From positions 7,346 through 71,345 of the forward strand of contig JAUYLN010000020.1 of the NCBI GenBank assembly GCA_030698885.1: a stretch of 64,000 nt of DNA, in the 5' to 3' direction. Under the pieces are notes generated by a model, which saw only the letters and a list, made by a program, of their open reading frames with translations, was not told the DNA's origin and made no database searches. The DNA comes from a bacterium (lineage in GTDB: Bacteria > Patescibacteriota > Minisyncoccia > 2-02-FULL-40-12 > IGHO2-01-FULL-4-A). Positions 1,213 to 59,100 of this stretch are shown one piece after another. Numbering within the stretch: the first letter of the stretch is position 1; every line of letters begins with the position of its first letter. Made by a program: the position numbers and the translations under genes.

Positions 1213-4200
1213 CTAGGCTACCATCGCAATCGGTCTGACTTTGTCGCAGAGCAGTTTGGGCACCCCATCTCTTTCGTTAAGTTTGCCGCTGATAATTAAA
1301 ACGCTGTTCTCCTGAAAGACATCAGGGTGTCTTTCAAGCACATCCGGAAATACCACAACTTCAATTCTGGATGTCAGGTCTTCAAGCCACGAGAACATCA
1401 TGGGCTTGCCGGTTTTAGTTATTATTTTCTGTATTTTGGTTACCATTCCGCCTATTTTTACTGAGCCGCGATGAGAGGGTAGGTCTTTTATGTTTATCAA
1501 ATCTTTTTCAAAACTTAATTTCATCTGATAATCCTTAAGCGGATGGTCGGAGATAAACAACCCAAGCAGTTCTTTTTCCCACATTAATTTTTCAGCTCTG
1601 TTGACCGGCTGGGCATCGGCTAAACGGATTGGCGGCATTTTTGATTCAACACCGGGTGCGTCAAATAGGCTTGTTTGTTTTGAGGCGTGGGCTTTATGGC
1701 TGTCGCGGGCATAATTTAGCAGGTGGTCAAGGTTGGCCAATAATCTTCCTCTTTCTTCAAAAATATCCAAAGCCCCACAGCGGATTAAACTTTCAAGCGA
1801 TTTTTTATTAAAATCTTTATCATTAACTCTGATAAGCAAATCGTCTATGGTTTTGTACGGGCCATTATTCTTTCTTTCCTGAATTATGGCATCAACTATA
1901 TGCACCCCGATATTCTTAACCGCTGCCAGACCGAAACGAATGCGGGGCGTGATGTTTTCTCCCGGTACAACCGTAAATTTTCTTGAACTCTCATTTATTT
2001 GCGGCGGTAGAACTTGCATGTCCATGGCTTGGCATTCTTCTATAAGCATCGCAGTCCGTTCTATGTCTCCCGAGGCAGAATTCATCAGCGCGGCCATAAA
2101 TTCAACCGGATAGCTTGCTTTAAGATATGCGGTTTGATAGGCGATAGTGGCGTAACAGGCGGCATGTGATTTATTGAAGCCGTATCTGGCGAAGGGCTCT
2201 ATGAAGTTCCATATCTTTTCGGCGATTTGCTGGTCCAGGCCGTTGCCCATCGCACCGCTTATAAATTTTTCTTTTTGCTGGTCCAGGAGAGTTTTTATTT
2301 TTTTACCCACGGCCTTGATAAGAACATATCCTTGACCAAGGCTGAATCCCGCAACATTGTTGGCTATCTGCATAAGCTGTTCCTGGTAGACGATTATACC
2401 GTAAGTATTTTTTAGTATCGGTTCAAGGGTTGGATGTACATACTCTATCGGCTCTTTGCCGTGTTTGCGTGCCATATAGCGGGGGACCATGCCGGCATCC
2501 AGCGTGCCTGGACGATATAGCGATATCATGGCGATAATGTCTTCAATGCCGTCAGGCTTAAGCTCCTTCAGGTATCGTTTCATGCCCGAACTTTCTACCT
2601 GGAACACGCCGGTGGTTTTTCCTTGGCGCAGTAGTTTAAAAGTATTTTTGTCATCAAGCGGTATTTTATCTATGTCTATTTCTATGTTGTGATTTTCTTT
2701 TATCAGCTGAAGGGTGTCGTGAATAATGGTCAGGTTTGAAAGCCCCAGAAAGTCCATTTTCAAAAGTCCAAGGTCGGCAACAGCATTCATTTCGTATTGG
2801 GTGATAATATCACCTTCGTTGGTGCCTCGTTGAAGCGGAAGATAGTCTGTGAGTGGTCCCGGTGCTATCACGACGGCACAGGCATGAGTTGAGGAATGCC
2901 TGACTGTGCCTTCAAGACGTGAAGCCGAGTCTATGAGTTTTTTAACATCAGGATTAGTTGAATAATGCTGTCTTATTTCATCAACCTCTTCAATGCATTT
3001 TTTTAGGAAGCCGGATTTTTGGCCTTGATTAGGGGCAAGCGGTATAAGTTTGGCTATTTTATCGCAAAATTCATAAGAAAAACCAAGTGCTCTTCCGGCA
3101 TCACGGATGCTTCCTCTGGCCGCCATAGTACCGAAGGTTATGACCTGGGCAAAGTGGTCTTTGCCATATTTGTTGCGCACATATTCAAAAACCTCATCCC
3201 GCCTCATATCATCAAAATCAATATCAATATCGGGCATGCTGACCCTCTCTGGATTTAAGAACCTTTCAAAAAGGAGATTATAGTGTATAGGATCAATGTT
3301 TGTAATATTTAAGGCATAGGCGATTATACTGCCGGCGGCCGAACCTCTTCCGGGGCCGACGATTATGCCTTGGCCTTTGGCCCAGTTAACAAAATCCTGA
3401 ACGATAAGAAAATAACTTGCGAATCCTGTTTTCTGGATAACATCAAGCTCATACTCCAGTCTTTTTATTATTTCCGGTCCGGGTTCCGTGCCGTATCTTT
3501 TGATGAGGCCGGCAAAAGATAGTTCTCTTAAATACTGCTCGGCTGTTTTATTTTCCGGCAAAGGAAAGTTAGGCAACTTGTTGTTGCCTAACTCTATTTC
3601 AACATTGCACATGTCGGCAATCTTAGCCGTGTTCTCAAGAGCTTCTGGAATATCGGCAAATTTTTCCAGCATTTTTTCGGGCGGTAATATTGAGAAGTCA
3701 TCGTTTCTCAATGTAAGCCTGTCTTTGTCACTGACCTGGGTTCCGGTTTGTACGGCCAAGAGGACGTCATGGGCTTCGGCATCCTCGCTTTTGCAGTAAT
3801 GAGAATCTTGGGTAGCCGCCATAGGTATGCCTGTTTCTTTTGATAATCTGATTATTTCCGGGGTGGTAAAATTCTGGTCTTCAATAAAAGGATGTTGCTG
3901 GACCTCCAGATAAAAATTGCCGGAACCAAAAATTTCCTGATACTCCAGGGCTATTTTTTTAGCTTTGTCGTATTGTCTTGAGAGGATAGCGGTTGAAATT
4001 TCTCCGCCAAGGCAAGCCGAAAGACAGACTAGGCCCTCTGAGTGCTCTCGGAGTAGTTTTCTGTCTATTCTGGGTTTGTAGTAAAAGCCTTCCAGGTGAG
4101 ATGCCGTAACCAGCTTGATGAGGTTTTGATAGCCGGTATTATTTTTGGCAAGAAGAATAAGATGGTAATAATTTTTTACTCCTCGGCCGGGAGTTTTGTC

Positions 4201-4422
4201 ATACATGTCCCCGGTGATATACATCTCGCAGCCGATTATCGGTTTGATGCCAGCCTTTTTGGCTTTTTGATAAAACTCTATAGCTCCGTACATTACACCA
4301 TGGTCTGTGATTGCGGCCGCATCCATGCCAAGTTCCTTGACTCTTGCAACCAGCTCGTCAACCTTGGTCAGGCCGTCTAGCAAGGAGTAGTGAGTGTGGG
4401 TGTGGAGGTGAGCGAAGCGCAT
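1213..4422 (-). CDS. dnaE: DNA polymerase III alpha subunit
   Basis: The N-terminal PHP-domain motif MRFAHLHTHTHYSLLDG and full-length DnaE homology are present. The track ORF starts further upstream; the start was chosen at the Met preceding the PHP motif (alternative 4437). Confidence 0.85.
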   Translation of the reverse strand: MRFAHLHTHTHYSLLDGLTKVDELVARVKELGMDAAAITDHGVMYGAIEFYQKAKKAGIKPIIGCEMYITGDMYDKTPGRGVKNYYHLILLAKNNTGYQNLIKLVTASHLEGFYYKPRIDRKLLREHSEGLVCLSACLGGEISTAILSRQYDKAKKIALEYQEIFGSGNFYLEVQQHPFIEDQNFTTPEIIRLSKETGIPMAATQDSHYCKSEDAEAHDVLLAVQTGTQVSDKDRLTLRNDDFSILPPEKMLEKFADIPEALENTAKIADMCNVEIELGNNKLPNFPLPENKTAEQYLRELSFAGLIKRYGTEPGPEIIKRLEYELDVIQKTGFASYFLIVQDFVNWAKGQGIIVGPGRGSAAGSIIAYALNITNIDPIHYNLLFERFLNPERVSMPDIDIDFDDMRRDEVFEYVRNKYGKDHFAQVITFGTMAARGSIRDAGRALGFSYEFCDKIAKLIPLAPNQGQKSGFLKKCIEEVDEIRQHYSTNPDVKKLIDSASRLEGTVRHSSTHACAVVIAPGPLTDYLPLQRGTNEGDIITQYEMNAVADLGLLKMDFLGLSNLTIIHDTLQLIKENHNIEIDIDKIPLDDKNTFKLLRQGKTTGVFQVESSGMKRYLKELKPDGIEDIIAMISLYRPGTLDAGMVPRYMARKHGKEPIEYVHPTLEPILKNTYGIIVYQEQLMQIANNVAGFSLGQGYVLIKAVGKKIKTLLDQQKEKFISGAMGNGLDQQIAEKIWNFIEPFARYGFNKSHAACYATIAYQTAYLKASYPVEFMAALMNSASGDIERTAMLIEECQAMDMQVLPPQINESSRKFTVVPGENITPRIRFGLAAVKNIGVHIVDAIIQERKNNGPYKTIDDLLIRVNDKDFNKKSLESLIRCGALDIFEERGRLLANLDHLLNYARDSHKAHASKQTSLFDAPGVESKMPPIRLADAQPVNRAEKLMWEKELLGLFISDHPLKDYQMKLSFEKDLINIKDLPSHRGSVKIGGMVTKIQKIITKTGKPMMFSWLEDLTSRIEVVVFPDVLERHPDVFQENSVLIISGKLNERDGVPKLLCDKVRPIAMVA

Positions 4423-4546
4423 ACTTAATTTTACCATGAGTAAAAAATAACCAACAATTTTTGGGTTTTGTGGACAACGCCTATCAAAAACAGCAGATAT
4501 CAAACATCAAACATCATAACGACAAATCAAAAGTAAAAATTGTAAA

Positions 4547-4573
4547 CCCCCACACCCATGTATGGGTGTGGGG
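4547..4573. repeat. Perfect palindrome ccccacacccat-gt-atgggtgtgggg in the dnaE/ORF4661 divergent region
   Basis: Seen directly; a 12-bp perfect inverted repeat with a 2-nt loop. Confidence 0.6.
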
Positions 4574-4598
4574 TAAAGGAGAGCGCCCGCTATTAAGA

Positions 4599-4626
4599 TT
4601 GACAACTATCATTCTTTATGATAATG
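4599..4626 (+). promoter_or_regulatory. Sigma70-like promoter candidate (TTGACA ... gATAAT) for ORF 4661
   Basis: TTGACA at 4599-4604 is followed 15-16 nt later by GATAAT/ATAATG. AAGGAG lies 7 nt before the ATG at 4661. Confidence 0.4.
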
Positions 4627-4660
4627 TTTTGATAGCTCTTAAAAGACAAGGAGATTAAGC

Positions 4661-5101
4661 ATGAGATTATCGAGATATTATATCTTGACAGCTATTGTCG
4701 TAGCTTTATTTATTGCATTCGCGGGTTACTGCCACTCACGAGTGTACGTTTCGGCGGCGACAGTAGATGGTGCCGAGATAAAGATCAGGATAGATTACGT
4801 GAGCTTTTTTTCTTCTGATTTTTATGACATTGTTTATCACAGGAAGACAAAACTTGTTGTAGCGAAAATGGGCGTGGCATATATTTATGAAAATGAGCAA
4901 TTACTAAAGCCGGCTATCATTGGCGAAGGAGCCCCGGGTTTTATTATCGATGTTGAGGTTCAATATCCGGAATACTTTCTGGAGTTGATTAAGGAGCTAG
5001 ACCGAGCAAAGACCGAAGTTTTATTGAGAGTGAGGGCAGTTGAGGTTGAAAAGGCAATAATGGCCATTAAAAAGTTTAAGAAAAATAAGAGCAGTCATTA
5101 A
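4661..5101 (+). CDS. Hypothetical protein with an N-terminal TM anchor
   Basis: The ORF has a good SD (AAGGAG) and an N-terminal hydrophobic helix. No recognisable family. Confidence 0.4.
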   Translation: MRLSRYYILTAIVVALFIAFAGYCHSRVYVSAATVDGAEIKIRIDYVSFFSSDFYDIVYHRKTKLVVAKMGVAYIYENEQLLKPAIIGEGAPGFIIDVEVQYPEYFLELIKELDRAKTEVLLRVRAVEVEKAIMAIKKFKKNKSSH

Positions 5102-11485: not shown

Positions 11486-11601
11486 ATCTACCAATTACTA
11501 ATTTTATACTAATATACCAATAGAATTTATTAGTATATTAGTGATTTAATTCGTAATTCGTAGATTAAGTATATTAGTGACTTTATTAGTAATTAGTAGA
11601 T
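11486..11601 (+). repeat. Intergenic nested-palindrome element, copy C (rplW->rplB). A 1.5-unit copy with the 3' arm duplicated.
   Basis: It contains ...ATTCGTAATTCGTAGAT and a second ...ATTAGTAATTAGTAGAT. Confidence 0.85.
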
Positions 11602-13513: not shown

Positions 13514-13594
13514 TCTACCAATTACGAATTACATAACTAATATACGAATAATAAATAGATTAGTATATTAGTGATTTTATTCGTAATTAGTAGA
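13514..13594 (+). repeat. Intergenic nested-palindrome element, copy D (rpsS->rplV)
   Basis: TCTACCAATTACGAATT...GATTAGTATATTAGTGATTTTATTCGTAATTAGTAGA. Confidence 0.85.
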
Positions 13595-28275: not shown

Positions 28276-30933
28276 GTGAGGCCGGTGATTAAGCCGGATG
28301 GTTTTGATTTTCAAAACTTGCCCCAAACTCTTGACCTGAAGAACGGAACGACGTTGATGACGGTATCGGCTGAAAATAAAAATGACGAAACTGTGATATT
28401 GGCCGATAAGGCACTTCCGAAAAAGCCGGGTTTGTTCTGGCACCGGCGTCCCAGGATAGTCAGCAAAAGAGACTTGTTCTTAAATCAGCTTGAAAGGGCC
28501 TCCGAGGTTCCGGTGGATATTAAATTAGAGCTAACCAAAGTTGGTGGAATTTTGCACGAACCGACTGCCGGAACTTTTTTGAGTTTTCAAAAAAGAAAAT
28601 CAGTTTTAGCAAGCCGTATCTTCCGCGATTATCCGGGCATGATTAGCATTGATGATATTGCAGCTGAGATAAGTCCCGAGCCACCGCCTCACTCCCAAGA
28701 GTTAGCCGGACTTAAGGTTAATCAGATAGCTTCCCTGACTGCTCTTTCAGGTGAGAACTTGCCCATGCATTCACCTGCCGGCAGTGAACTTGATTATTGG
28801 CTTCGGAGGTTCAAAGAAGATGGCCTAGTGACGGACAATAGGCCAGAAAAATTAAAGCATCCCAGCGACTATGTGGTTCCCGATAGTTTTGTACGGTCAA
28901 AAGCGGTAATGAGCGAAGTAGAAGCTGATTATGTCCAGGCGTCCAGGAAGTCCGGTAAATCCAAAAAAATAATTACTGTCATAGCTATAATAGCCGGCAT
29001 ACTCTCGGTATTATTTATTTTAAATTTTTTAGCTAACGATGGTCTGGGGGCAAAATCCAATGTTTTGCAAAACGGCAGTAATGCTATTGCGAATATCAAA
29101 GAGGCCCAGAAGAATCTTGAGAATTTTGATTTTGATAAAGCTGCCGATAATTTTGCTTTGGCTAATGACGATTTTTTAAAAGCTTCGCGCAAACTAAACG
29201 ACATAGGTTTTTCTCTGGTCTCTTTTTTTGTTAAATTACCCGGCCTGAGCATGCTCGGCGGAGAATCTTTTGATAAAATTACAGCGGCTAGCGATCTCCT
29301 GGGTGCCGGCCGGAATTTAACCAAGGCCGGGGAGGAGCTTTCCCTGGCATTCAGCGGACTTTATAAAACGGCGGTGCCGCTTTTTTTAGGCGGATACACG
29401 GCTGATGAGAATTCTGACGGCATTTACATCACGCTTAACCGGTTTAAAGAGGTTCTGGATTCCGCCAACTCTAAGATAGAGAGTTCGCGCCGGCTTTTGG
29501 CCAATATCAACCCTGACGTATTGCCGGAAGACAACAGGGAGTCCTTTTTTGATTTCAGAGAAAAGATGCCTTTGCTTGAAAAAGCTATTGACGATGCCGC
29601 CGGGTATTCTGATTTCTTACTTAATGTCGTCGGCAAGGATGGGACAAAAATATATCTGGTGTTATTCCAGAACAATAGTGAACTAAGAGCTACGGGGGGT
29701 TTTCCGGGTTCATATGCCCTTCTTACGTTCAAAGATGGCCGGCTTAACAAAATATTCGTAGATGATATTTATAATCCCGACGGCCAGATAAAAGATAAAA
29801 TAATCCCGCCCCTTCCGCTGGCTCACATAGTTTATAATTGGGAAACCAGAGATGCTAACTGGTTTGCGGACTTTCCGGCCTCGGCCCGAAAGGTGGCGGA
29901 TTTTTTTAAGAAAGGAAGCGGAGGCATTCAGGTTGATGGTGTTTTTACATTCACGCCGGATATTCTGGTGGAAATGCTGAAAGTTACCGGTCCTGTCGTT
30001 ATGCCTGATTATGGCCTAAATCTTGGCACTGATAATTTTCTCCAAGAAATACAGCTTGAAGTGGAGTCAAAAAACAATCCTACCCAGCCTAAAACGGTAC
30101 TAGTTGATTTCCAGCCCTTATTCCTTGAAAAATTAAAAAATCAGCCTAATGAGAAATGGGTTGAAATATTTAAGATAATGGCCAAAGCCACGGAAGAGAA
30201 AAAGATACTGACTTATTTTAAAGATGAAAACCTTGAAAATTTTGCCAAGAAAAAAGATATAGCGGGGGACTTAAAAAATGTGAACGGAGATTTTTTATCC
30301 GTAGTTTTTTCTAATATTAAAGGCTCTAAGACGGATGTCGTTACAGATAATTTTATTGACCTGTCAACTGTAATTGATGGCAGCAAAATACAGCATGAAC
30401 TAATCATAAACAGGATACATAGCGGTGGCGACAGCCCCTTTAGATTTTATAATCTGCAGAATCCGGCATATGTCAGGGTCTATGTGCCAAGGGGAGCGGT
30501 TCTTGAAGATATATCAGGAAATGCTATCGTTGATTATCATCCGCTGGTTAATTATGGTTTAGAAGGTTATGTTCCGGACCCTGATTTGGCTAAGATAGAA
30601 AATAGTACATATCACCCCTTTAATGGCGTAGATGTATTTGAAGAATCAGGCAAAACCGTGTTTGGTTTCTGGATGCTGACAAATCCTAAATCAAGCTCTA
30701 AGGCTATAATAAAGTATTCACTAAAAAATTCCTCATCGGATAAATATTCTCTTTATTGGCAAAAGCAAAGCGGTACCATCGGAGATAAAAATAAGATAAA
30801 TGCCAGTTTCAGATTAATCGGGGATGGGATTGTAGCTGATGCCGTTCCGGAGCTGAAAGCTGCGGGATATTATCTGGTGTTTAATTCAGATTTGGCCGTA
30901 GATAGGGAGATTAAATTTAATATCAAGTATTAG
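28276..30933 (+). CDS. Large membrane-anchored protein, DUF4012-like (tentative). GTG start chosen 9 nt after TGGAGGG; the track ORF begins at 28237.
   Basis: An internal TM segment plus the motif LVLFQNNSELRATGGFPGSYALL typical of DUF4012 proteins (recalled from memory). Confidence 0.5.
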   Translation: MRPVIKPDGFDFQNLPQTLDLKNGTTLMTVSAENKNDETVILADKALPKKPGLFWHRRPRIVSKRDLFLNQLERASEVPVDIKLELTKVGGILHEPTAGTFLSFQKRKSVLASRIFRDYPGMISIDDIAAEISPEPPPHSQELAGLKVNQIASLTALSGENLPMHSPAGSELDYWLRRFKEDGLVTDNRPEKLKHPSDYVVPDSFVRSKAVMSEVEADYVQASRKSGKSKKIITVIAIIAGILSVLFILNFLANDGLGAKSNVLQNGSNAIANIKEAQKNLENFDFDKAADNFALANDDFLKASRKLNDIGFSLVSFFVKLPGLSMLGGESFDKITAASDLLGAGRNLTKAGEELSLAFSGLYKTAVPLFLGGYTADENSDGIYITLNRFKEVLDSANSKIESSRRLLANINPDVLPEDNRESFFDFREKMPLLEKAIDDAAGYSDFLLNVVGKDGTKIYLVLFQNNSELRATGGFPGSYALLTFKDGRLNKIFVDDIYNPDGQIKDKIIPPLPLAHIVYNWETRDANWFADFPASARKVADFFKKGSGGIQVDGVFTFTPDILVEMLKVTGPVVMPDYGLNLGTDNFLQEIQLEVESKNNPTQPKTVLVDFQPLFLEKLKNQPNEKWVEIFKIMAKATEEKKILTYFKDENLENFAKKKDIAGDLKNVNGDFLSVVFSNIKGSKTDVVTDNFIDLSTVIDGSKIQHELIINRIHSGGDSPFRFYNLQNPAYVRVYVPRGAVLEDISGNAIVDYHPLVNYGLEGYVPDPDLAKIENSTYHPFNGVDVFEESGKTVFGFWMLTNPKSSSKAIIKYSLKNSSSDKYSLYWQKQSGTIGDKNKINASFRLIGDGIVADAVPELKAAGYYLVFNSDLAVDREIKFNIKY

Positions 30934-35251: not shown

Positions 35252-35332
35252 TCTACTAATTACTAATTTCATACTAATATACTAATCTATTTCTTATTCG
35301 TATATTAGTGATTTTATTAGTAATTGGTAGAT
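35252..35332 (+). repeat. Intergenic nested-palindrome element, copy M (upstream of the ftsB-like gene)
   Basis: TCTACTAATTACTAATTTCATACTAATATAC...GTATATTAGTGATTTTATTAGTAATTGGTAGAT. Confidence 0.8.
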
Positions 35333-39120: not shown

Positions 39121-39201
39121 TCTACCAATTACTAATCGGGTACTAATGTACGAATAAAATCAGGATTAGTATATTAGTGATTTAATTAGTAATTAGTAGA
39201 T
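39121..39201 (+). repeat. Intergenic nested-palindrome element, copy O (rpsL->rpsG)
   Basis: TCTACCAATTACTAATCGGGTACTAATGTACG...GATTAGTATATTAGTGATTTAATTAGTAATTAGTAGAT. Confidence 0.85.
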
Positions 39202-42882: not shown

Positions 42883-42964
42883 TCTACTAATTACTAATAA
42901 AATCACTAATATACGAATAAGATTAAAATTTAGTATATTCGTATCAGATTAGTAATTGGTAGAT
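42883..42964 (+). repeat. Intergenic nested-palindrome element, copy P (GT2->galT-like)
   Basis: TCTACTAATTACTAATAAAATCACTAATATACG...GTATATTCGTATCAGATTAGTAATTGGTAGAT. Confidence 0.85.
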
Positions 42965-47577: not shown

Positions 47578-47589
47578 TTAATTTCAAAT

Positions 47590-47616
47590 CCCCGCACCTT
47601 TCAACGGCGCGGGTTT
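47590..47616 (+). terminator. Terminator hairpin (cccgcacc-tttcaac-ggcgcggg + T-run)
   Basis: Stem-loop followed by tttttaatt. Confidence 0.5.
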
Positions 47617-48595: not shown

Positions 48596-48624
48596 AGTAT
48601 TAAGTAGTAAGTATAAAGTATAAG
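48596..48624. repeat. Variant of the pilin-associated repeat (AGTATTAAGTAGTAAGTATAAAGTATAAG) directly upstream of the sortase start
   Basis: It shares AGTATTAAG...GTAGTAAGTAT with the repeats at 54428, 55990, 56487, 58163 and 58664. Confidence 0.55.
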
Positions 48625-48691: not shown

Positions 48692-48718
48692 CCTTAATAC
48701 TTAACCCTTACTACTTAT
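48692..48718. repeat. Inverted variant of the pilin-associated repeat (CCTTAATACTTAACCCTTACTACTTAT) overlapping the surface-protein stop codon
   Basis: Reverse complement: ATAAGTAGTAAGGGTTAAGTATTAAGG. Confidence 0.55.
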
Positions 48719-53034: not shown

Positions 53035-53197
53035 GAACTTGTCCAAAAACCCTCTTTCGTCGCGAAATTGCAGAATTTTGAGCGAGACACTCCGGCGGAA
53101 AACGAAGCATATCCTTTGATATGGTGAGTTTGAGCCGTTGGGTGTCGCAGCCGAAATTCTGCAATTGCAGCAGAATACGGGGTTTTTGGACAAGTTC
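53035..53197. promoter_or_regulatory. Nested long-range inverted repeats in the pilB leader: GAACTTGTCCAAAAACCC ... GGGTTTTTGGACAAGTTC (outer) and CGAAATTGCAGAATT ... AATTCTGCAATTGCAG (inner)
   Basis: Two perfect or near-perfect inverted-repeat pairs ~130 bp apart, ending 10 nt before the pilB ATG. Confidence 0.5.
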
Positions 53198-54461: not shown

Positions 54462-54842
54462 ATGGATACAAAAACAAAAATTGAAAGCTTTACCGATTTA
54501 AAGGCATGGAAAGAAGGGCATAGGCTTGTCCTGGACGTTTATAAGATTAGCAGGGAGTTTCCCAGAGAAGAGATGTTCGGCTTGGCCAATCAATTAAGGC
54601 GTGCAGTCGTATCAATCACATCAAACTTGGCCGAAGGATTTAGTAGAACATCCTATAAGGACAAGATAAAGTTTTATTCTATATCATTAGGGTCTTTAAC
54701 TGAAGTGCAAAACCAGTTATTGATATCCCGAGACATTAATTATTTGAACAAAGAAAAATTTGATATTTTAGCACAACAAACAATTTTGGTAAGTAAGTTG
54801 GTTAATGGTTTAATTAAAAAATTAAAAACCCTTAATACTTAA
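54462..54842 (+). CDS. Four-helix-bundle protein (TIGR02436 / 23S-rRNA-intervening-sequence-protein family)
   Basis: ...FTDLKAWKEGHRLVLDVYKISREFPREEMFGLANQLRRAVVSITSNLAEGFSR...ISLGSLTEVQNQL... matches the family signature. Confidence 0.6.
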   Translation: MDTKTKIESFTDLKAWKEGHRLVLDVYKISREFPREEMFGLANQLRRAVVSITSNLAEGFSRTSYKDKIKFYSISLGSLTEVQNQLLISRDINYLNKEKFDILAQQTILVSKLVNGLIKKLKTLNT

Positions 54843-55989: not shown

Positions 55990-56023
55990 CTAAGTATTAA
56001 GGGATAAATAGTAAGTATTAAGC
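55990..56023 (+). repeat. Pilin-associated repeat (CTAAGTATTAAGGGATAAATAGTAAGTATTAAGC)
   Basis: It starts right after the pilC stop and ends at the pilin ATG. Confidence 0.8.
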
Positions 56024-56485
56024 ATGAATACAAAAACAAAAAACAATCAGTGGGGGTTCACTGCCGTAGAGGTTTTAATGGTTATTGGAATTTTTTCGCT
56101 TCTGGCCGGCCTGGGTCTTTTTATCAGTATGGATTTCTACAGAAGTTATTCTTTCAGGTCTGACAGGGATATGACCATCAGTATTCTGGAAAGAGCCAGA
56201 GCTCAGTCTTTGGCCAATATTAATGAATCGGCCCACGGTGTTCGCTTTGATTCCGGTTCATCCAAGTTAATATTATTTCAGGGTAATTCATATGATGACA
56301 GAGACACCTCGCTTGACCAGGAAATATCTTTAAATTCAGGCATAGCAGTAACCGGCATAAATGAGGTTGTGTTTGAACAACTGACGGGTAATGCAGTATA
56401 TTCTGGAGCCGGAAATATGATTTTAAGCTACGGAGCCCAAACCGCGACGATATCATTTAATGGAGAGGGGAGGATAAATTACTAG
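56024..56485 (+). CDS. Type IV prepilin/pseudopilin (class III signal MNTKTKNNQWG|FTAVE)
   Basis: Leader ending in Gly, mature N-terminus F-x-x-x-E5 followed by a hydrophobic helix. Confidence 0.7.
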   Translation: MNTKTKNNQWGFTAVEVLMVIGIFSLLAGLGLFISMDFYRSYSFRSDRDMTISILERARAQSLANINESAHGVRFDSGSSKLILFQGNSYDDRDTSLDQEISLNSGIAVTGINEVVFEQLTGNAVYSGAGNMILSYGAQTATISFNGEGRINY

Positions 56486-56486
56486 C

Positions 56487-56518
56487 AAGTATTAAGGGAT
56501 AAGTAGTAAGTATTAAGC
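56487..56518 (+). repeat. Pilin-associated repeat (CAAGTATTAAGGGATAAGTAGTAAGTATTAAGC)
   Basis: Located between the stop of pilin 1 and the ATG of the next gene. Confidence 0.8.
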
Positions 56519-58171
56519 ATGAATACAAAAATAAAAAACAATCAGAGGGGGTTCATCCCGCACCTTTCTGGCAATTGCCTTCGGCATAACAGGCCTCTTT
56601 GCGGCGTTTGCCAAAAAGGTGCGGGATTCAGCACTATTGAGATAGTGCTGGCTTTTGCGATAATCATTGTCGTGCTGTCGGCTATAATTTTAGTTGTGTT
56701 CGGCAATCAGACTGTTGCCGTGGATAATGAGATAAATAACGAGGCATTGTACAAAGCGAAAGAAATTGTTGAGACGGCCCGTGCTGATGCCAAGGAGGAT
56801 TTTTATGGTTTAGCCGGGAGTACCTCTCTTGATGATATTTACACAAAAGTTCTAGGTATATCTGATATTAATCTTTGCAAAAAAAGCATTACCGGAACGG
56901 TTTCATGGCAGACTGAACCTGACAGGCCTCTTGAAATATCTATCAACAGCGAAGTCTCAAGTATTTTTGACGCCCTTGCCCTGGGTGGCGACTGCGGTTC
57001 TGATACCCCCCCGATAAGCGAGTGGTGGTTTCCGAGGACATTTAAGGATTATGACCTAAAGACAATAGAGCCTCCGGCAGAACAGTCGGGGAATGCTGGT
57101 GTTCCGGCAACAAGTATTGATGTCGTTAAGCAGGGGGGCAGTAAATACGCAGTCTTAAGTACCGCACATAATTCAGAAAATGATATCTGGATAATTAATG
57201 TTGACGATAGTTTAAATGCATTTATAGTGAGTTCGCTTGAAACAGAAAGCGTTGGTCTTAATACTGCGGATGTGGCAGGAGGCCTTGCTTATGCCTTAAG
57301 CGTAGGTTCACCCACGACACAACCTTCCGAATTACAAATTATAGATATAAGTACAGTTAGCGCGCCCGCACTCTTGGCTACCAAGTCTTTGGATATTTTC
57401 GGTGCAGATGCCGAGAATTCACCGAATGCAAATACTATTTATTACTTTGACGAAAAAATATATGTCGGTACGCATAAAACAGGAGGCAAAGAATTTCAGA
57501 TTTTTAGTGGTGTTGCACCATATGAGAAGGTTGCAGAGCTAGAGATAAACCACAACATTAATGACATAGTTGTCAGGGGTGATTATGCCTATTTGGCTAC
57601 ATCGGATGATGGCTATGCAATAAATGGTGGGGCAGGTGAGCTTATGGTTGTTAACATAAATCCGTTAAGCCCAGAAGAATATATGGTTCACCCTGATGTA
57701 ACTGGCATGTGGTACGATGCCACCAAGGGTTTTGACGCTATAAGTCTTTATTTGCTAGGCAATAAGATTTATTTAGGCAGGCAGGGCGGTAATTATGTTA
57801 AAACAGAAGCGTTCAATTTTATGATATTAGACATAACTGACCCGCATGCAATCACGGAGCTTGGTTCAAAATTTATTCCTACTAACGAATCACCAAATAA
57901 GGCCGCGGGGATTAAGGATTTTCAAATAGTGAGCGATTTTGCATTTATTGCAACAGATGTAGATAACTTGGACTTTCAGGTTTATAGAGTAAGCGATCCA
58001 ACTAATATTCTAAATTGCAGTGAGCTGACTCCTCCTCCTGCGTCTAACTGTGGTAAATATGATTTTCCGGCAAAAATGGTAGATCTCGAATTTAGCGATA
58101 ACCTCATTTATGCAGCCATTGAAAGTAATGCAACTTTCAGGATAATTTTTGATGATATAACCAAGTATTAA
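56519..58171 (+). CDS. Large (550-aa) pilin-like protein, a putative tip or minor pilin. It has an unusually long leader containing two G|F junctions and an in-frame 13-bp-stem hairpin.
   Basis: MNTKIKNNQRG-FIPHL...QKGAG|FSTIEIVLAF: the second junction has E5 and a hydrophobic helix. The C-terminal ~450 aa form a globular domain. Confidence 0.6.
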   Translation: MNTKIKNNQRGFIPHLSGNCLRHNRPLCGVCQKGAGFSTIEIVLAFAIIIVVLSAIILVVFGNQTVAVDNEINNEALYKAKEIVETARADAKEDFYGLAGSTSLDDIYTKVLGISDINLCKKSITGTVSWQTEPDRPLEISINSEVSSIFDALALGGDCGSDTPPISEWWFPRTFKDYDLKTIEPPAEQSGNAGVPATSIDVVKQGGSKYAVLSTAHNSENDIWIINVDDSLNAFIVSSLETESVGLNTADVAGGLAYALSVGSPTTQPSELQIIDISTVSAPALLATKSLDIFGADAENSPNANTIYYFDEKIYVGTHKTGGKEFQIFSGVAPYEKVAELEINHNINDIVVRGDYAYLATSDDGYAINGGAGELMVVNINPLSPEEYMVHPDVTGMWYDATKGFDAISLYLLGNKIYLGRQGGNYVKTEAFNFMILDITDPHAITELGSKFIPTNESPNKAAGIKDFQIVSDFAFIATDVDNLDFQVYRVSDPTNILNCSELTPPPASNCGKYDFPAKMVDLEFSDNLIYAAIESNATFRIIFDDITKY

Positions 58172-58194
58172 GGGATAAGTAGTAAGTATTAAGC
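58163..58194 (+). repeat. Pilin-associated repeat (CAAGTATTAAGGGATAAGTAGTAAGTATTAAGC)
   Basis: Immediately upstream of the pilin ATG at 58195. Confidence 0.8.
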
Positions 58195-58665
58195 ATGAAT
58201 ACAAAAAGAAAAAACAATCAGAGGGGATTCACTTTGGTGGAGGTGCTCATCTACACGGTTTTAATTATGTTTATACTTGGCGGAATGCTTTTGGCCGTCT
58301 ATAACATTGTTGAAGGAAGTACGGCCCTTGGCCAGGATGTGATTATTCAAGAAGAGGCAAATTTTCTGCTTCGTAAAATTGAGTGGGCATTGAGCGGGGC
58401 CAGCGATATCAATACTCCGAATTCAGGAAATAGCGGGAATGTGCTTTCGGTTGATAAAGATTTAAACACCATACAGTTTAATCTTGATTCAGGTAATTTA
58501 AGGATTGATAAGGGGAGCGGTCCGATAATACTAAACAGCGAGTATGTTACGGTTTCCAGTTTGAGCTTTGAGCATATTCCCGCAAGCGGAACCGGTCCAG
58601 CAGCGGTTCGTGCCGAATTTTATGTTGACGATAAATACTTCAATTTAACGAAGTACCTTCGTTAA
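58195..58665 (+). CDS. Type IV prepilin/pseudopilin (MNTKRKNNQRG|FTLVE)
   Basis: Class III signal with E5 and a hydrophobic N-terminal helix. Confidence 0.7.
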   Translation: MNTKRKNNQRGFTLVEVLIYTVLIMFILGGMLLAVYNIVEGSTALGQDVIIQEEANFLLRKIEWALSGASDINTPNSGNSGNVLSVDKDLNTIQFNLDSGNLRIDKGSGPIILNSEYVTVSSLSFEHIPASGTGPAAVRAEFYVDDKYFNLTKYLR

Positions 58666-58695
58666 GTATTAAGGGATAAGTAGCAAGTATTAAGC
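58664..58695 (+). repeat. Pilin-associated repeat (TAAGTATTAAGGGATAAGTAGCAAGTATTAAGC)
   Basis: Overlaps the stop of pilin 3 and ends at the ATG of pilin 4. Confidence 0.8.
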
Positions 58696-59100
58696 ATGAA
58701 TACAAAAATAAAAAACAATCAGGAGGGATTTATCGCGCTGGTGTCAGCAATCGTAATATCTCTTGTATTGATGGCGATAGTTTTCTCCCTAAGTTTTAGG
58801 GGATTTTTCGGGCGCTTCAATCTTCTGGACAGCGAATTTAAAGAAAGAAGCATCGCTGTCGCTGAAGCTTGCGGTGACAATGCATTGCTTCGCTTGGCCC
58901 AAGATATAAACTATGCAGGCAGTGAGAGCTTTGATATAGGAGATGATACTTGTAAAGTTTTGCCGATAAATAATATATTAAGTCCCAGGGTTATCTATGC
59001 TACGGCTAATGTATATTCAGCTGTTACAAATCTGAAGATAACGGTTGATGAAGCCACTCTCTCCGTCAGCTCTTGGCAAGAAATTCCGAAACGGCCCTAG
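58696..59100 (+). CDS. Minor pilin-like protein lacking Glu5 (MNTKIKNNQEG|FIALVS)
   Basis: Same conserved leader, but the mature +5 residue is Val rather than Glu; it could be a GspK/PilX-like minor pilin. Confidence 0.55.
   Translation: MNTKIKNNQEGFIALVSAIVISLVLMAIVFSLSFRGFFGRFNLLDSEFKERSIAVAEACGDNALLRLAQDINYAGSESFDIGDDTCKVLPINNILSPRVIYATANVYSAVTNLKITVDEATLSVSSWQEIPKRP

Follow-up and report, generated by a model that had tools for sequence, protein, structure and literature searches.

A 71-nt palindromic segment lies in frame within the leader-coding part of a gene for a 550-residue pilin-like protein in the 64,000-nt stretch of DNA analysed here (the window: contig JAUYLN010000020.1 of assembly GCA_030698885.1, positions 7,346 to 71,345, from a Patescibacteria or candidate phyla radiation (CPR) bacterium). 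We read this segment, with a probability of about 0.8, as a non-autonomous element resembling a miniature inverted-repeat transposable element (MITE), which is bounded by invariant termini of 12-13 nt (TCCCGCACCTTT...AAAGGTGCGGGA) and duplicates a 4-bp TTYA target. Its relatives, referred to here as the TCCCGCACC hairpins, apparently form an undescribed, widespread family of tiny palindromic mobile elements of CPR bacteria. The coordinates of the features discussed are given in Table 1.

The segment separates the leader cassette MNTKIKNNQRG/F from a second junction, KGAG/FSTIE (the slash marks a junction or boundary throughout). The original prediction had described an in-frame insertion between 56519 and 56640 that contains a 13-bp perfect inverted repeat and leads to a second canonical junction, KGAG/FSTIEIV with Glu5. 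By direct reading and translation, the sequences quoted there are present, the frame stays open, and the second junction is found as described (GGA TTC at 56624-56629, with the Glu+5 codon at 56639-56641). The perfect repeat exists as well, but its 13-nt arms (ATCCCGCACCTTT / AAAGGTGCGGGAT) are found at 56555-56567 and 56615-56627 instead of 56567-56579 and 56614-56626. Likewise, the insertion comprises 25 codons rather than 26: the Phe codons at 56552 and 56627 are 75 nt apart, and the peptide originally listed has 24 residues, the 25th codon being the duplicated Phe.

The perfect arms lengthen to 25-nt arms with 88% complementarity (56555-56579 / 56603-56627), and the 13-nt arm has exact matches at these two places only in the window. 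The RNA fold of the segment is a self-contained hairpin with -43 kcal/mol (z = -4.5), a stability reached by none of 200 shuffled sequences. Its GC content is ~0.53, compared to roughly 0.30-0.45 in the adjoining sequence. Close inverted repeats are frequent in the window (45 pairs, most of those examined being intergenic), so the repeat alone is unremarkable. What is notable about this hairpin is its position within leader-coding sequence and its membership in a family. Rfam gave no match at the site, either at the gathering threshold or at E <= 5, and ARAGORN found no tRNA there. An intrinsic terminator was considered and rejected: the hairpin is followed by TTCAGCACTATTG with no U-tract, and a terminator scan was silent at 56555-56640.

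We compared the gene with 14 orthologues (P0002-P0015; 33-64% identity), of which P0003 and P0009 are truncated at the N-terminus and uninformative. The segment is absent from all 12 orthologues with a complete N-terminus, rather than being uniformly present as coding sequence, which was the outcome that would have spoken against an inserted element. Their leaders measure 10-42 residues, mostly 10-20, and where the junction is canonical they proceed directly into mature sequence (for example MKDVSISKQSG/FSTLELL and MNQNSKFKIQNSSG/FSTLELL). The same holds within the window. The leader cassette, ~75 nt made up of 24-32 nt of untranslated sequence and MNTK.KNNQ.G(F), occurs in four copies with 80-92% identity, ahead of pilin-like genes starting at 56024, 56519, 58195 and 58696. 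The three other copies pass from GG(G/A)TT(C/T)A into mature sequence, without insert.

A filled and an empty site can be compared directly. Metagenome contig Ga0209542_10252166 (L114 below) is syntenic with the window, with ~81% identity over aligned columns. Its first pilin gene, the orthologue of the window gene at 56024-56485, encodes MKFNTKNNQRGF-IPHLSGNCLHHNRSLCGVCQKGAG-FTAVEIL and carries the element directly after ...CAGAGGGGGTTCA, in the same orientation and frame as in the window gene at 56519. In the alignment of these orthologues, the window shows a clean 75-nt gap: the empty site reads ...GGGGTTCACTGCC with a single TTCA, the filled site ...GGGGGTTCA[TCCCGC...GCGGGA]TTCACCGCC. The two copies differ at 6 of 71 positions (91% identical, counted from the alignment) and share an unusually GC-rich interior (55%, compared to a family median of 29%). 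The stem is perfect over 19 bp in L114; in the window it is broken once, by A in place of G at 56615. Conversely, the L114 orthologue of the 550-residue gene lacks this element and has a different 36-residue leader with another small hairpin and CTTTGCGCT repeats. Taken together, these comparisons show that the segment is an insertion.

The segment also belongs to a dispersed palindromic family. Metagenome contigs were scanned for TCCCGCACCTTT, 7-67 nt and AAAGGTGCGGGA; the bases of the termini were required, so the sample is confined to elements with undiverged ends. Both 12-nt termini were matched at no fewer than 120 loci, mainly from groundwater and sediment. By estimate, under 3 matches to 24 fixed bases are expected by chance, and at most ~2 even in 5e12 bases. 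The matches listed, to which the family counts below refer, comprise 131 copies representing at least 117 distinct elements of 31-110 nt, with a mode in the 60s. Their interiors are variable (7-86 nt) and mostly AT-rich (median GC 0.29), and some contigs hold 2-3 copies or more (L031, L064, L076). When a single 20-nt arm was searched for in a collection with one genome for each species, 14 loci were found, and the partner arm was present only in two CPR genomes. A Patescibacteria metagenome-assembled genome (MAG) has a 92-nt intergenic copy and a Saccharibacteria MAG a 31-nt copy. The other 12 loci were rejected as chance or coding matches without partner arm, in Proteobacteria, Desulfotignum and others. 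No family copy was found in the viral contigs scanned. Rfam searches of 20 other family loci returned only sub-threshold, microRNA-like hairpin noise on the copies, and literature searches with the sequence string or with CPR, MITE and palindrome terms retrieved no description of the family. Near-matches in the window at 29803-29901, 30856-30868 and 47589-47601 were discarded for poor or unpaired arms, the last being an ordinary terminator-like hairpin.

Contig L031 is rich in copies, having no fewer than three that are paired, plus four solo arms. Hairpins overlap the 5' ends of its genes for secreted proteins (3383-4828 on the minus strand, and 2697-3224), and one of them gives an N-terminal extension (MIKKINPAPCSQRGFQPSHCSHKVFLPNRSKLRGIPRCGI...) ahead of the helix of the signal peptide, which may stem from a further insertion into a leader region or from a wrongly called start. 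No obvious transposase was seen among the reading frames of this contig.

Identical 4-nt flanks were present in 69 of the 131 copies (51 TTTA/TAAA, 15 TTCA/TGAA). The left and right flanks agree with each other, and are thus not independently T-rich, since the 51 + 15 concordant pairs stand against 4 mixed ones (Fisher p = 5e-12). The unoccupied paralogous and orthologous sites have a single TTCA. These flanks show a target duplication, and the right flank is followed by T in 49 of 55 copies, which suggests a preference for TTYA-T. Read in the sense of the genes, the flanks are TAAA or TGAA. Of 28 informative intergenic copies, 8 have the stop codon of the upstream gene as their flank, and most adjoining genes run in the same direction, which places these elements within operons, directly after stop codons. 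The idea of a mobile terminator was rejected. Upstream genes would then have been expected to stop ahead of the hairpin in the orientation with a U-tail, but the bias is the opposite, with genes reading through the TAAA/TGAA orientation, in which no U-tract follows.

At the window site, the second junction fits a class III signal peptide by direct reading, with Gly-1, Phe+1, Ser, Thr, Ile and Glu+5 followed by 14 hydrophobic or small residues. The first Gly-Phe junction (GGG TTC, 56549-56554) continues as RG/FIPHL and has neither Glu+5 nor a hydrophobic helix. With the insert deleted in silico, residues 6-31 matched the Pfam N_methyl model (PF07963) with 17.3 bits, below the 21.2-bit cut-off; the native N-terminus with the insert gave no match. 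Among the paralogues, one scored 20.6 bits (below the cut-off), one 31 bits, and a third had no match.

The prepilin motif G-F-T/S is coded GGN TTC A.. and therefore holds the TTCA preferred by the element. We propose that the element moved by transposition, through a presumed enzyme, and entered at TTC-A, where the cleavage junction has its Phe(+1) codon. Three properties would have made this insertion harmless: 71 + 4 = 75 nt is divisible by 3, the frame contains no stop, and GGA is followed by TTC. The element ends ...GGT GCG GGA, which together with the duplicated TTC encodes K-G-A-G/F in this frame, so that the junction is re-created. The leader would thereby grow from 11 to 36 residues, with the canonical G/FSTIE junction rebuilt behind the element. 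Prepilin peptidase would be expected to cut at the second junction, the first lacking Glu+5 and the helix. The element-encoded peptide, which is basic and as such compatible with a cytoplasmic leader, would then be discarded, probably leaving the mature protein unchanged. An odd gene model, with a 36-residue leader and two G/F junctions, would thus be explained as a harmless mobile-element scar, which helps annotators to place the mature N-terminus. More generally, coincidence of the TTYA preference with the G-F-T/S codons of prepilins would make signal-peptide junctions natural landing sites, the junction being rebuilt at each insertion.

Small GC-rich hairpins, related to this one or of other kinds, occur in the leaders of other pilin genes. 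In a distant CPR orthologue of the neighbouring pilin (L135/P0118), the same leader position reads GGGTTTA/TCCCCCACATAACGAATTTATGCGGGGGA/TTCACT, encoding MDKNKRGF-IPHITNLCGG-FTLWE. In L137/P0109, two hairpins lie in a 43-residue leader. Lengthening of CPR pilin leaders by different small GC-rich hairpins or repeats (in L114, L137 and L135, Table 1) is exemplified by MQNNNSKLKTKNSSSRAGRGTPKLCALRFKLCASKG/FSTIE and MKLPKIFQQRGKKSPLVPFCKRGIQILPSFYKGGSGRIFSKKG/FTLIE. The recurrent occupancy of leaders may reflect a hot spot of tolerance combined with a match to the target.

Family members also occupy other genes. Nine in-frame hosts were identified by Pfam: MnmA, iPGM (cofactor-independent phosphoglycerate mutase), Ham1/RdgB, ArgRS, MurG, Tgt (tRNA-guanine transglycosylase), HrcA, UvrC and an ABC ATPase. 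In Ham1/RdgB, IPHL...KGAGF interrupts the conserved GFGYDPIF/IP, and the target TTTA is duplicated. It depends on the frame whether the termini encode IPHL...KGAG, SRTF...KVRD or NPAPF...KRCGI. Of the 11 in-gene copies, 10 keep the frame (length + 4 divisible by 3), compared to 46% of the other copies (p = 1.3e-4 against 1/3). Occupancy of genes in frame is thus a recurrent property of the family.

Structural RNAs are occupied as well. The 530-nt RNase P class A RNA of L064 (666-1195, 188 bits; its reverse complement is also in L078) contains three of the hairpins. In the alignment one takes the place of helix P3, another that of helix P12, and the third is an insertion preceding the 3' strand of P4. 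CPR RNase P RNAs are already on record as having large helix extensions, for which this explanation was not given (PMC8172020). In L016, a 34-nt copy (527-560) lies between two 16S rRNA model matches, within a group I intron match that is weak and stays under the cut-off (34 bits). Finally, a conserved intergenic composite, 133-230 nt long in the 11 copies that were trimmed and aligned, has the hairpin as its central arm at 19 or more loci. Its order is uAAGUGAGG, hairpin A, CCGAACUUA, the TCCCGCACC hairpin, UUAAUUCGC, hairpin C and GCUCAUUAA. Hairpins A and C show compensatory changes, and the composite is situated between a stop codon and the next ribosome-binding site. Rfam gave no match to it. 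It may represent either a composite MITE or a structured RNA that has not been described.

Several observations weigh against reading the segment as a MITE-like element. The 64-kb window has only one intact copy. No autonomous element was detected, in that no pair of arms was found 0.4-3.5 kb apart with <=2 mismatches in the ~0.8 Mb of fetched loci, a small sample. The P3 and P12 hairpins of L064 align as whole helices, without TTYA flanks and without a residual host stem, which looks more like replacement of helices than insertion into loops; simple cut-and-paste insertion is inadequate to explain them. Cleavage at the second junction is a prediction, and so is the near-neutrality of the insertion. 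Moreover, the presence of the element in the second gene in the window and in the first gene in L114 could reflect an exchange of cassettes rather than a second transposition.

Under such an exchange, the element would have come from the neighbouring gene, where L114 has it, through recombination or gene conversion involving near-identical leader cassettes. The four window cassettes are similar even in their untranslated part, while the two cassettes of L114 differ from each other and show no such homogenisation; this suggests concerted evolution in the lineage of the window and is in line with this route. The GC-rich interiors place the window and L114 copies in the same sub-lineage. However, the right boundary is exact, with each gene's own mature sequence after the second TTCA and only ~8 nt of homology there, and the first window gene would also have had to lose the element precisely. 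We consider this route distinctly improbable, and it would concern only the way into the gene, not the identity of the element. A selected role of the added peptide is highly improbable. The extra 25 residues would have to be a functional leader extension, for example a long one of type IVb-like kind or one with a Cys-containing cytoplasmic motif. The frame is open, the peptide is basic, as leaders are, and L114 and P0106 have a near-identical peptide (2 of 24 residues differ from that of the window). But both differences between the two copies alter the amino acid, orthologues do not conserve the peptide, and its ends, IPHL...KGAG, are simply one of the three translations of the termini, the other two being used in other hosts.

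The original prediction had left a choice between an inserted element of small size, made tolerable by cleavage of the leader, and an RNA structure that regulates translation of the pilin. The former is borne out by the orthologues without the segment, the filled/empty pair and the dispersed family with its target duplications. A dedicated regulator of translation finds no support. The repeat is generic, its hairpin being found in unrelated proteins, RNAs and spacers; it begins at +37, outside the initiation footprint; and the predicted unpaired probability from -20 to +15 is 0.49 with and 0.52 without the insert. There is no U-tract and no terminator call, and of the stem pairs intact in L114 one is broken in the window. 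A broader version, in which the hairpin is selected as a cis-regulatory structure of the 5' coding region (for pausing, mRNA stabilisation or processing) and was possibly co-opted from the family, we regard as improbable. It would account for the great stability of the fold and for the recurrence of small GC-rich hairpins in the pilin leaders of at least four lineages (the window, genes 1 and 2 of L114, L135 and L137). It also fits the intergenic members that, in gene sense, sit in operons right after stop codons, like mRNA-stabilising REP elements. However, orthologues with a complete N-terminus do without the segment, and tolerance of the leader together with the TTCA target would suffice for recurrence, with no function needed.

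A bolder reading takes the hairpins as a CPR-wide counterpart of the Rickettsia palindromes, remodelling proteins and structural RNAs and selected in pilin leaders. We consider it unlikely; it draws on the stand-ins for P3 and P12 in RNase P RNA, the conserved four-way-junction composite between genes and the recurrence of related hairpins in prepilin leaders. If it were true, the basal stem would be a functional RNA module, for example one for protein binding, processing or a folding clamp. In-frame entry into essential genes and RNase P RNA parallels the protein-coding palindromes so far held to be a peculiarity of Rickettsia, and both hosts of such palindromes, Rickettsia and CPR, are bacteria with reduced genomes.

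The host protein begins MNTKIKNNQRGF-IPHLSGNCLRHNRPLCGVCQKGAG-FSTIEIVLAFAIIIVVL... (translation of the open reading frame (ORF)), and an NCBI MAG (protein tag Q8Q06_02395) has a hypothetical protein identical to it. Exact searches for contigs encoding this protein or P0001 gave no hit. In the protein search, its named relatives were CPR bacteria (Yanofskybacteria, Taylorbacteria, Paceibacterota and Patescibacteria), and its orthologues, of 475-564 residues, bear LVIVD repeats (PF08309). The gene is part of a pilB-pilC-pilin cluster; in L135 a syntenic cluster has the order T2SSE-T2SSF-pilin-LVIVD protein-pilins. No PilD gene was noticed among the frames of >=100 residues in 44-53 kb or the ORFs listed for 54-60 kb. 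The likeness of the cassettes within the window points to concerted evolution or else to a common signal for regulation or for the initiation of translation.

Table 1. Positions of the element, its host gene and related features. Window coordinates are given unless a contig is named.
Feature	Position	Strand	Basis
Host gene, 550-residue pilin-like protein	56519..58171	+	ORF translation, orthologue comparison
Conserved cassette: 24 nt of 5' untranslated sequence and leader codons 1-12 (MNTKIKNNQRGF)	56495..56554	+	4 copies in window
Four cassettes; untranslated upstream part contains AAGTATTAAGGGATAAGTAGTAAGTATTAAGC	56000-56073, 56495-56568, 58171-58244, 58672-58745		
Left target copy TTCA (Phe codon TTC + A)	56552..56555	+	direct reading
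Palindromic element, 71 nt, in-frame peptide (I)PHLSGNCLRHNRPLCGVCQKGAG	56556..56626	+	direct reading, repeat search, fold, family scan
Terminal inverted repeat of element, TCCCGCACCTTT	56556-56567		
GGCAATTGCC in GC-rich interior of element	56570-56579		
Terminal inverted repeat of element, AAAGGTGCGGGA	56615-56626		
Second canonical prepilin junction and N-terminal hydrophobic helix, G/FSTIEIVLAFAIIIVVLSA	56624..56683	+	translation; Glu+5 codon 56639-56641
Right target copy TTCA	56627..56630	+	direct reading
Unoccupied TTCA target in neighbouring pilin gene	56057..56060	+	orthologous L114 site occupied
Lengthened leader, L114 (orthologue of 550-residue gene)	~965-850	reverse	
Lengthened leader, L137	2001-2130		
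Lengthened leader, L135	3021-3057		
Composite with the hairpin as central arm	L020, L023, L033, L038, L041, L043, L053, L060, L065		
Composite, further loci	L072, L082, L100, L106, L107, L122, L124, L131, L132		

Other repeats and genes of the window were noted in passing. The motif TAAGTAGTAAGTAT[AT]AAG also occurs as an inverted pair (48601-48621 / 48697-48717). An imperfect inverted repeat of 56 nt (75% complementary; 53035-53197) is situated immediately ahead of the pilB-like ORF and runs into its annotated 5' end. Some 29 residues at the start of this ORF (MVSLSRWVSQPKFCNCSRIRGFWTSSRPF) probably belong to the repeat and not to the protein. Between the pilB-like and pilC-like genes, 54462-54842 encodes what we take, by eye, to be a four-helix-bundle protein of the '23S rRNA-intervening-sequence protein' type. 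A second palindromic family, AT-rich and unrelated in sequence to the TCCCGCACC family, is represented by ~18 copies of 60-115 nt between 10267 and 46639. Its arms read (A)TCTACCAATTAC[TG]AAT ... ATT[AC]GTAATT[AG]GTAGA(T), as at 11487-11600, 13514-13594, 35252-35331, 39121-39200 and 42883-42963. Four of the five copies read are intergenic and end a few bases ahead of an ATG.

Among known systems, the class III (type IV prepilin) signal peptides are matched by the second junction, AG/FSTIEIVLAFAIIIVVLSA, with its Gly-1, Phe+1, Glu+5 and helix, and by the basic leader. The window leader differs in its length of 36 residues, which is due to the insert and compares with the mostly shorter leaders of the orthologues, and in keeping a vestigial first G/F junction.

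The closest parallel in behaviour is provided by the Rickettsia palindromic elements (RPEs; Ogata et al. 2000 and 2002, summarised in PMC10969869 and PMC1779305). Like RPEs, the CPR elements are small palindromes without coding capacity of their own that lie in frame in unrelated housekeeping genes and add a tolerated short peptide, as in the nine Pfam-confirmed hosts. In contrast to RPEs, they reside in CPR/Patescibacteria, where no sequence relation was seen or is expected, are shorter (31-110 nt compared to roughly 100-150 bp), and have invariant termini, a clear 4-bp TTYA duplication and mostly intergenic copies. In addition, the window copy is located in a cleaved leader, with the mature protein probably unaltered. 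RPEs are not known to have a mobilising enzyme. The CPR element may thus work like an RPE, while membership in the RPE families is unlikely on account of host phylum and length.

With the bacterial MITEs (Correia/CREE of Neisseria, ERIC, BOX, RUP and Nezha; PMC10969869), the family shares terminal inverted repeats, target site duplication, dispersed copies (2-3 or more on some other contigs, one intact copy in the window), transcripts that form hairpins, and a mostly intergenic location with occasional in-frame intragenic copies. In keeping with a MITE, the 71-nt copy has no coding capacity for a transposase, the termini are shared between copies, and the target duplication is seen in the filled/empty pair. 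In contrast, neither a parent nor an autonomous insertion sequence with the same termini was found in the ~0.8 Mb of loci, the smallest elements, of 31 nt, consist of little more than their two termini, the target is TTYA and not the TA of Correia, and copies occur within RNase P RNA helices. REP/BIME sequences, defined as strictly extragenic, imperfect palindromes of 20-40 nt with a conserved 5' tetranucleotide and an associated RAYT, resemble the family as short GC-rich hairpins in AT-richer spacers, between co-directional genes after stop codons. They differ in that the CPR family has no conserved 5' GTAG-type tetranucleotide but has flank duplications, a variable interior (to 86 nt) and intragenic copies; no RAYT gene was seen in a search confined to the fetched loci.

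In conclusion, the single copy in the window is probably neutral, and it brings to light an abundant palindromic family of CPR/Patescibacteria, not found in Rfam or the searchable literature, that touches essential genes and RNAs of these bacteria. By these comparisons, the family appears to be new and of the MITE kind, outside the described families that could be tested here, and probably finds its nearest analogue in the Rickettsia palindromic elements (PMC10969869).

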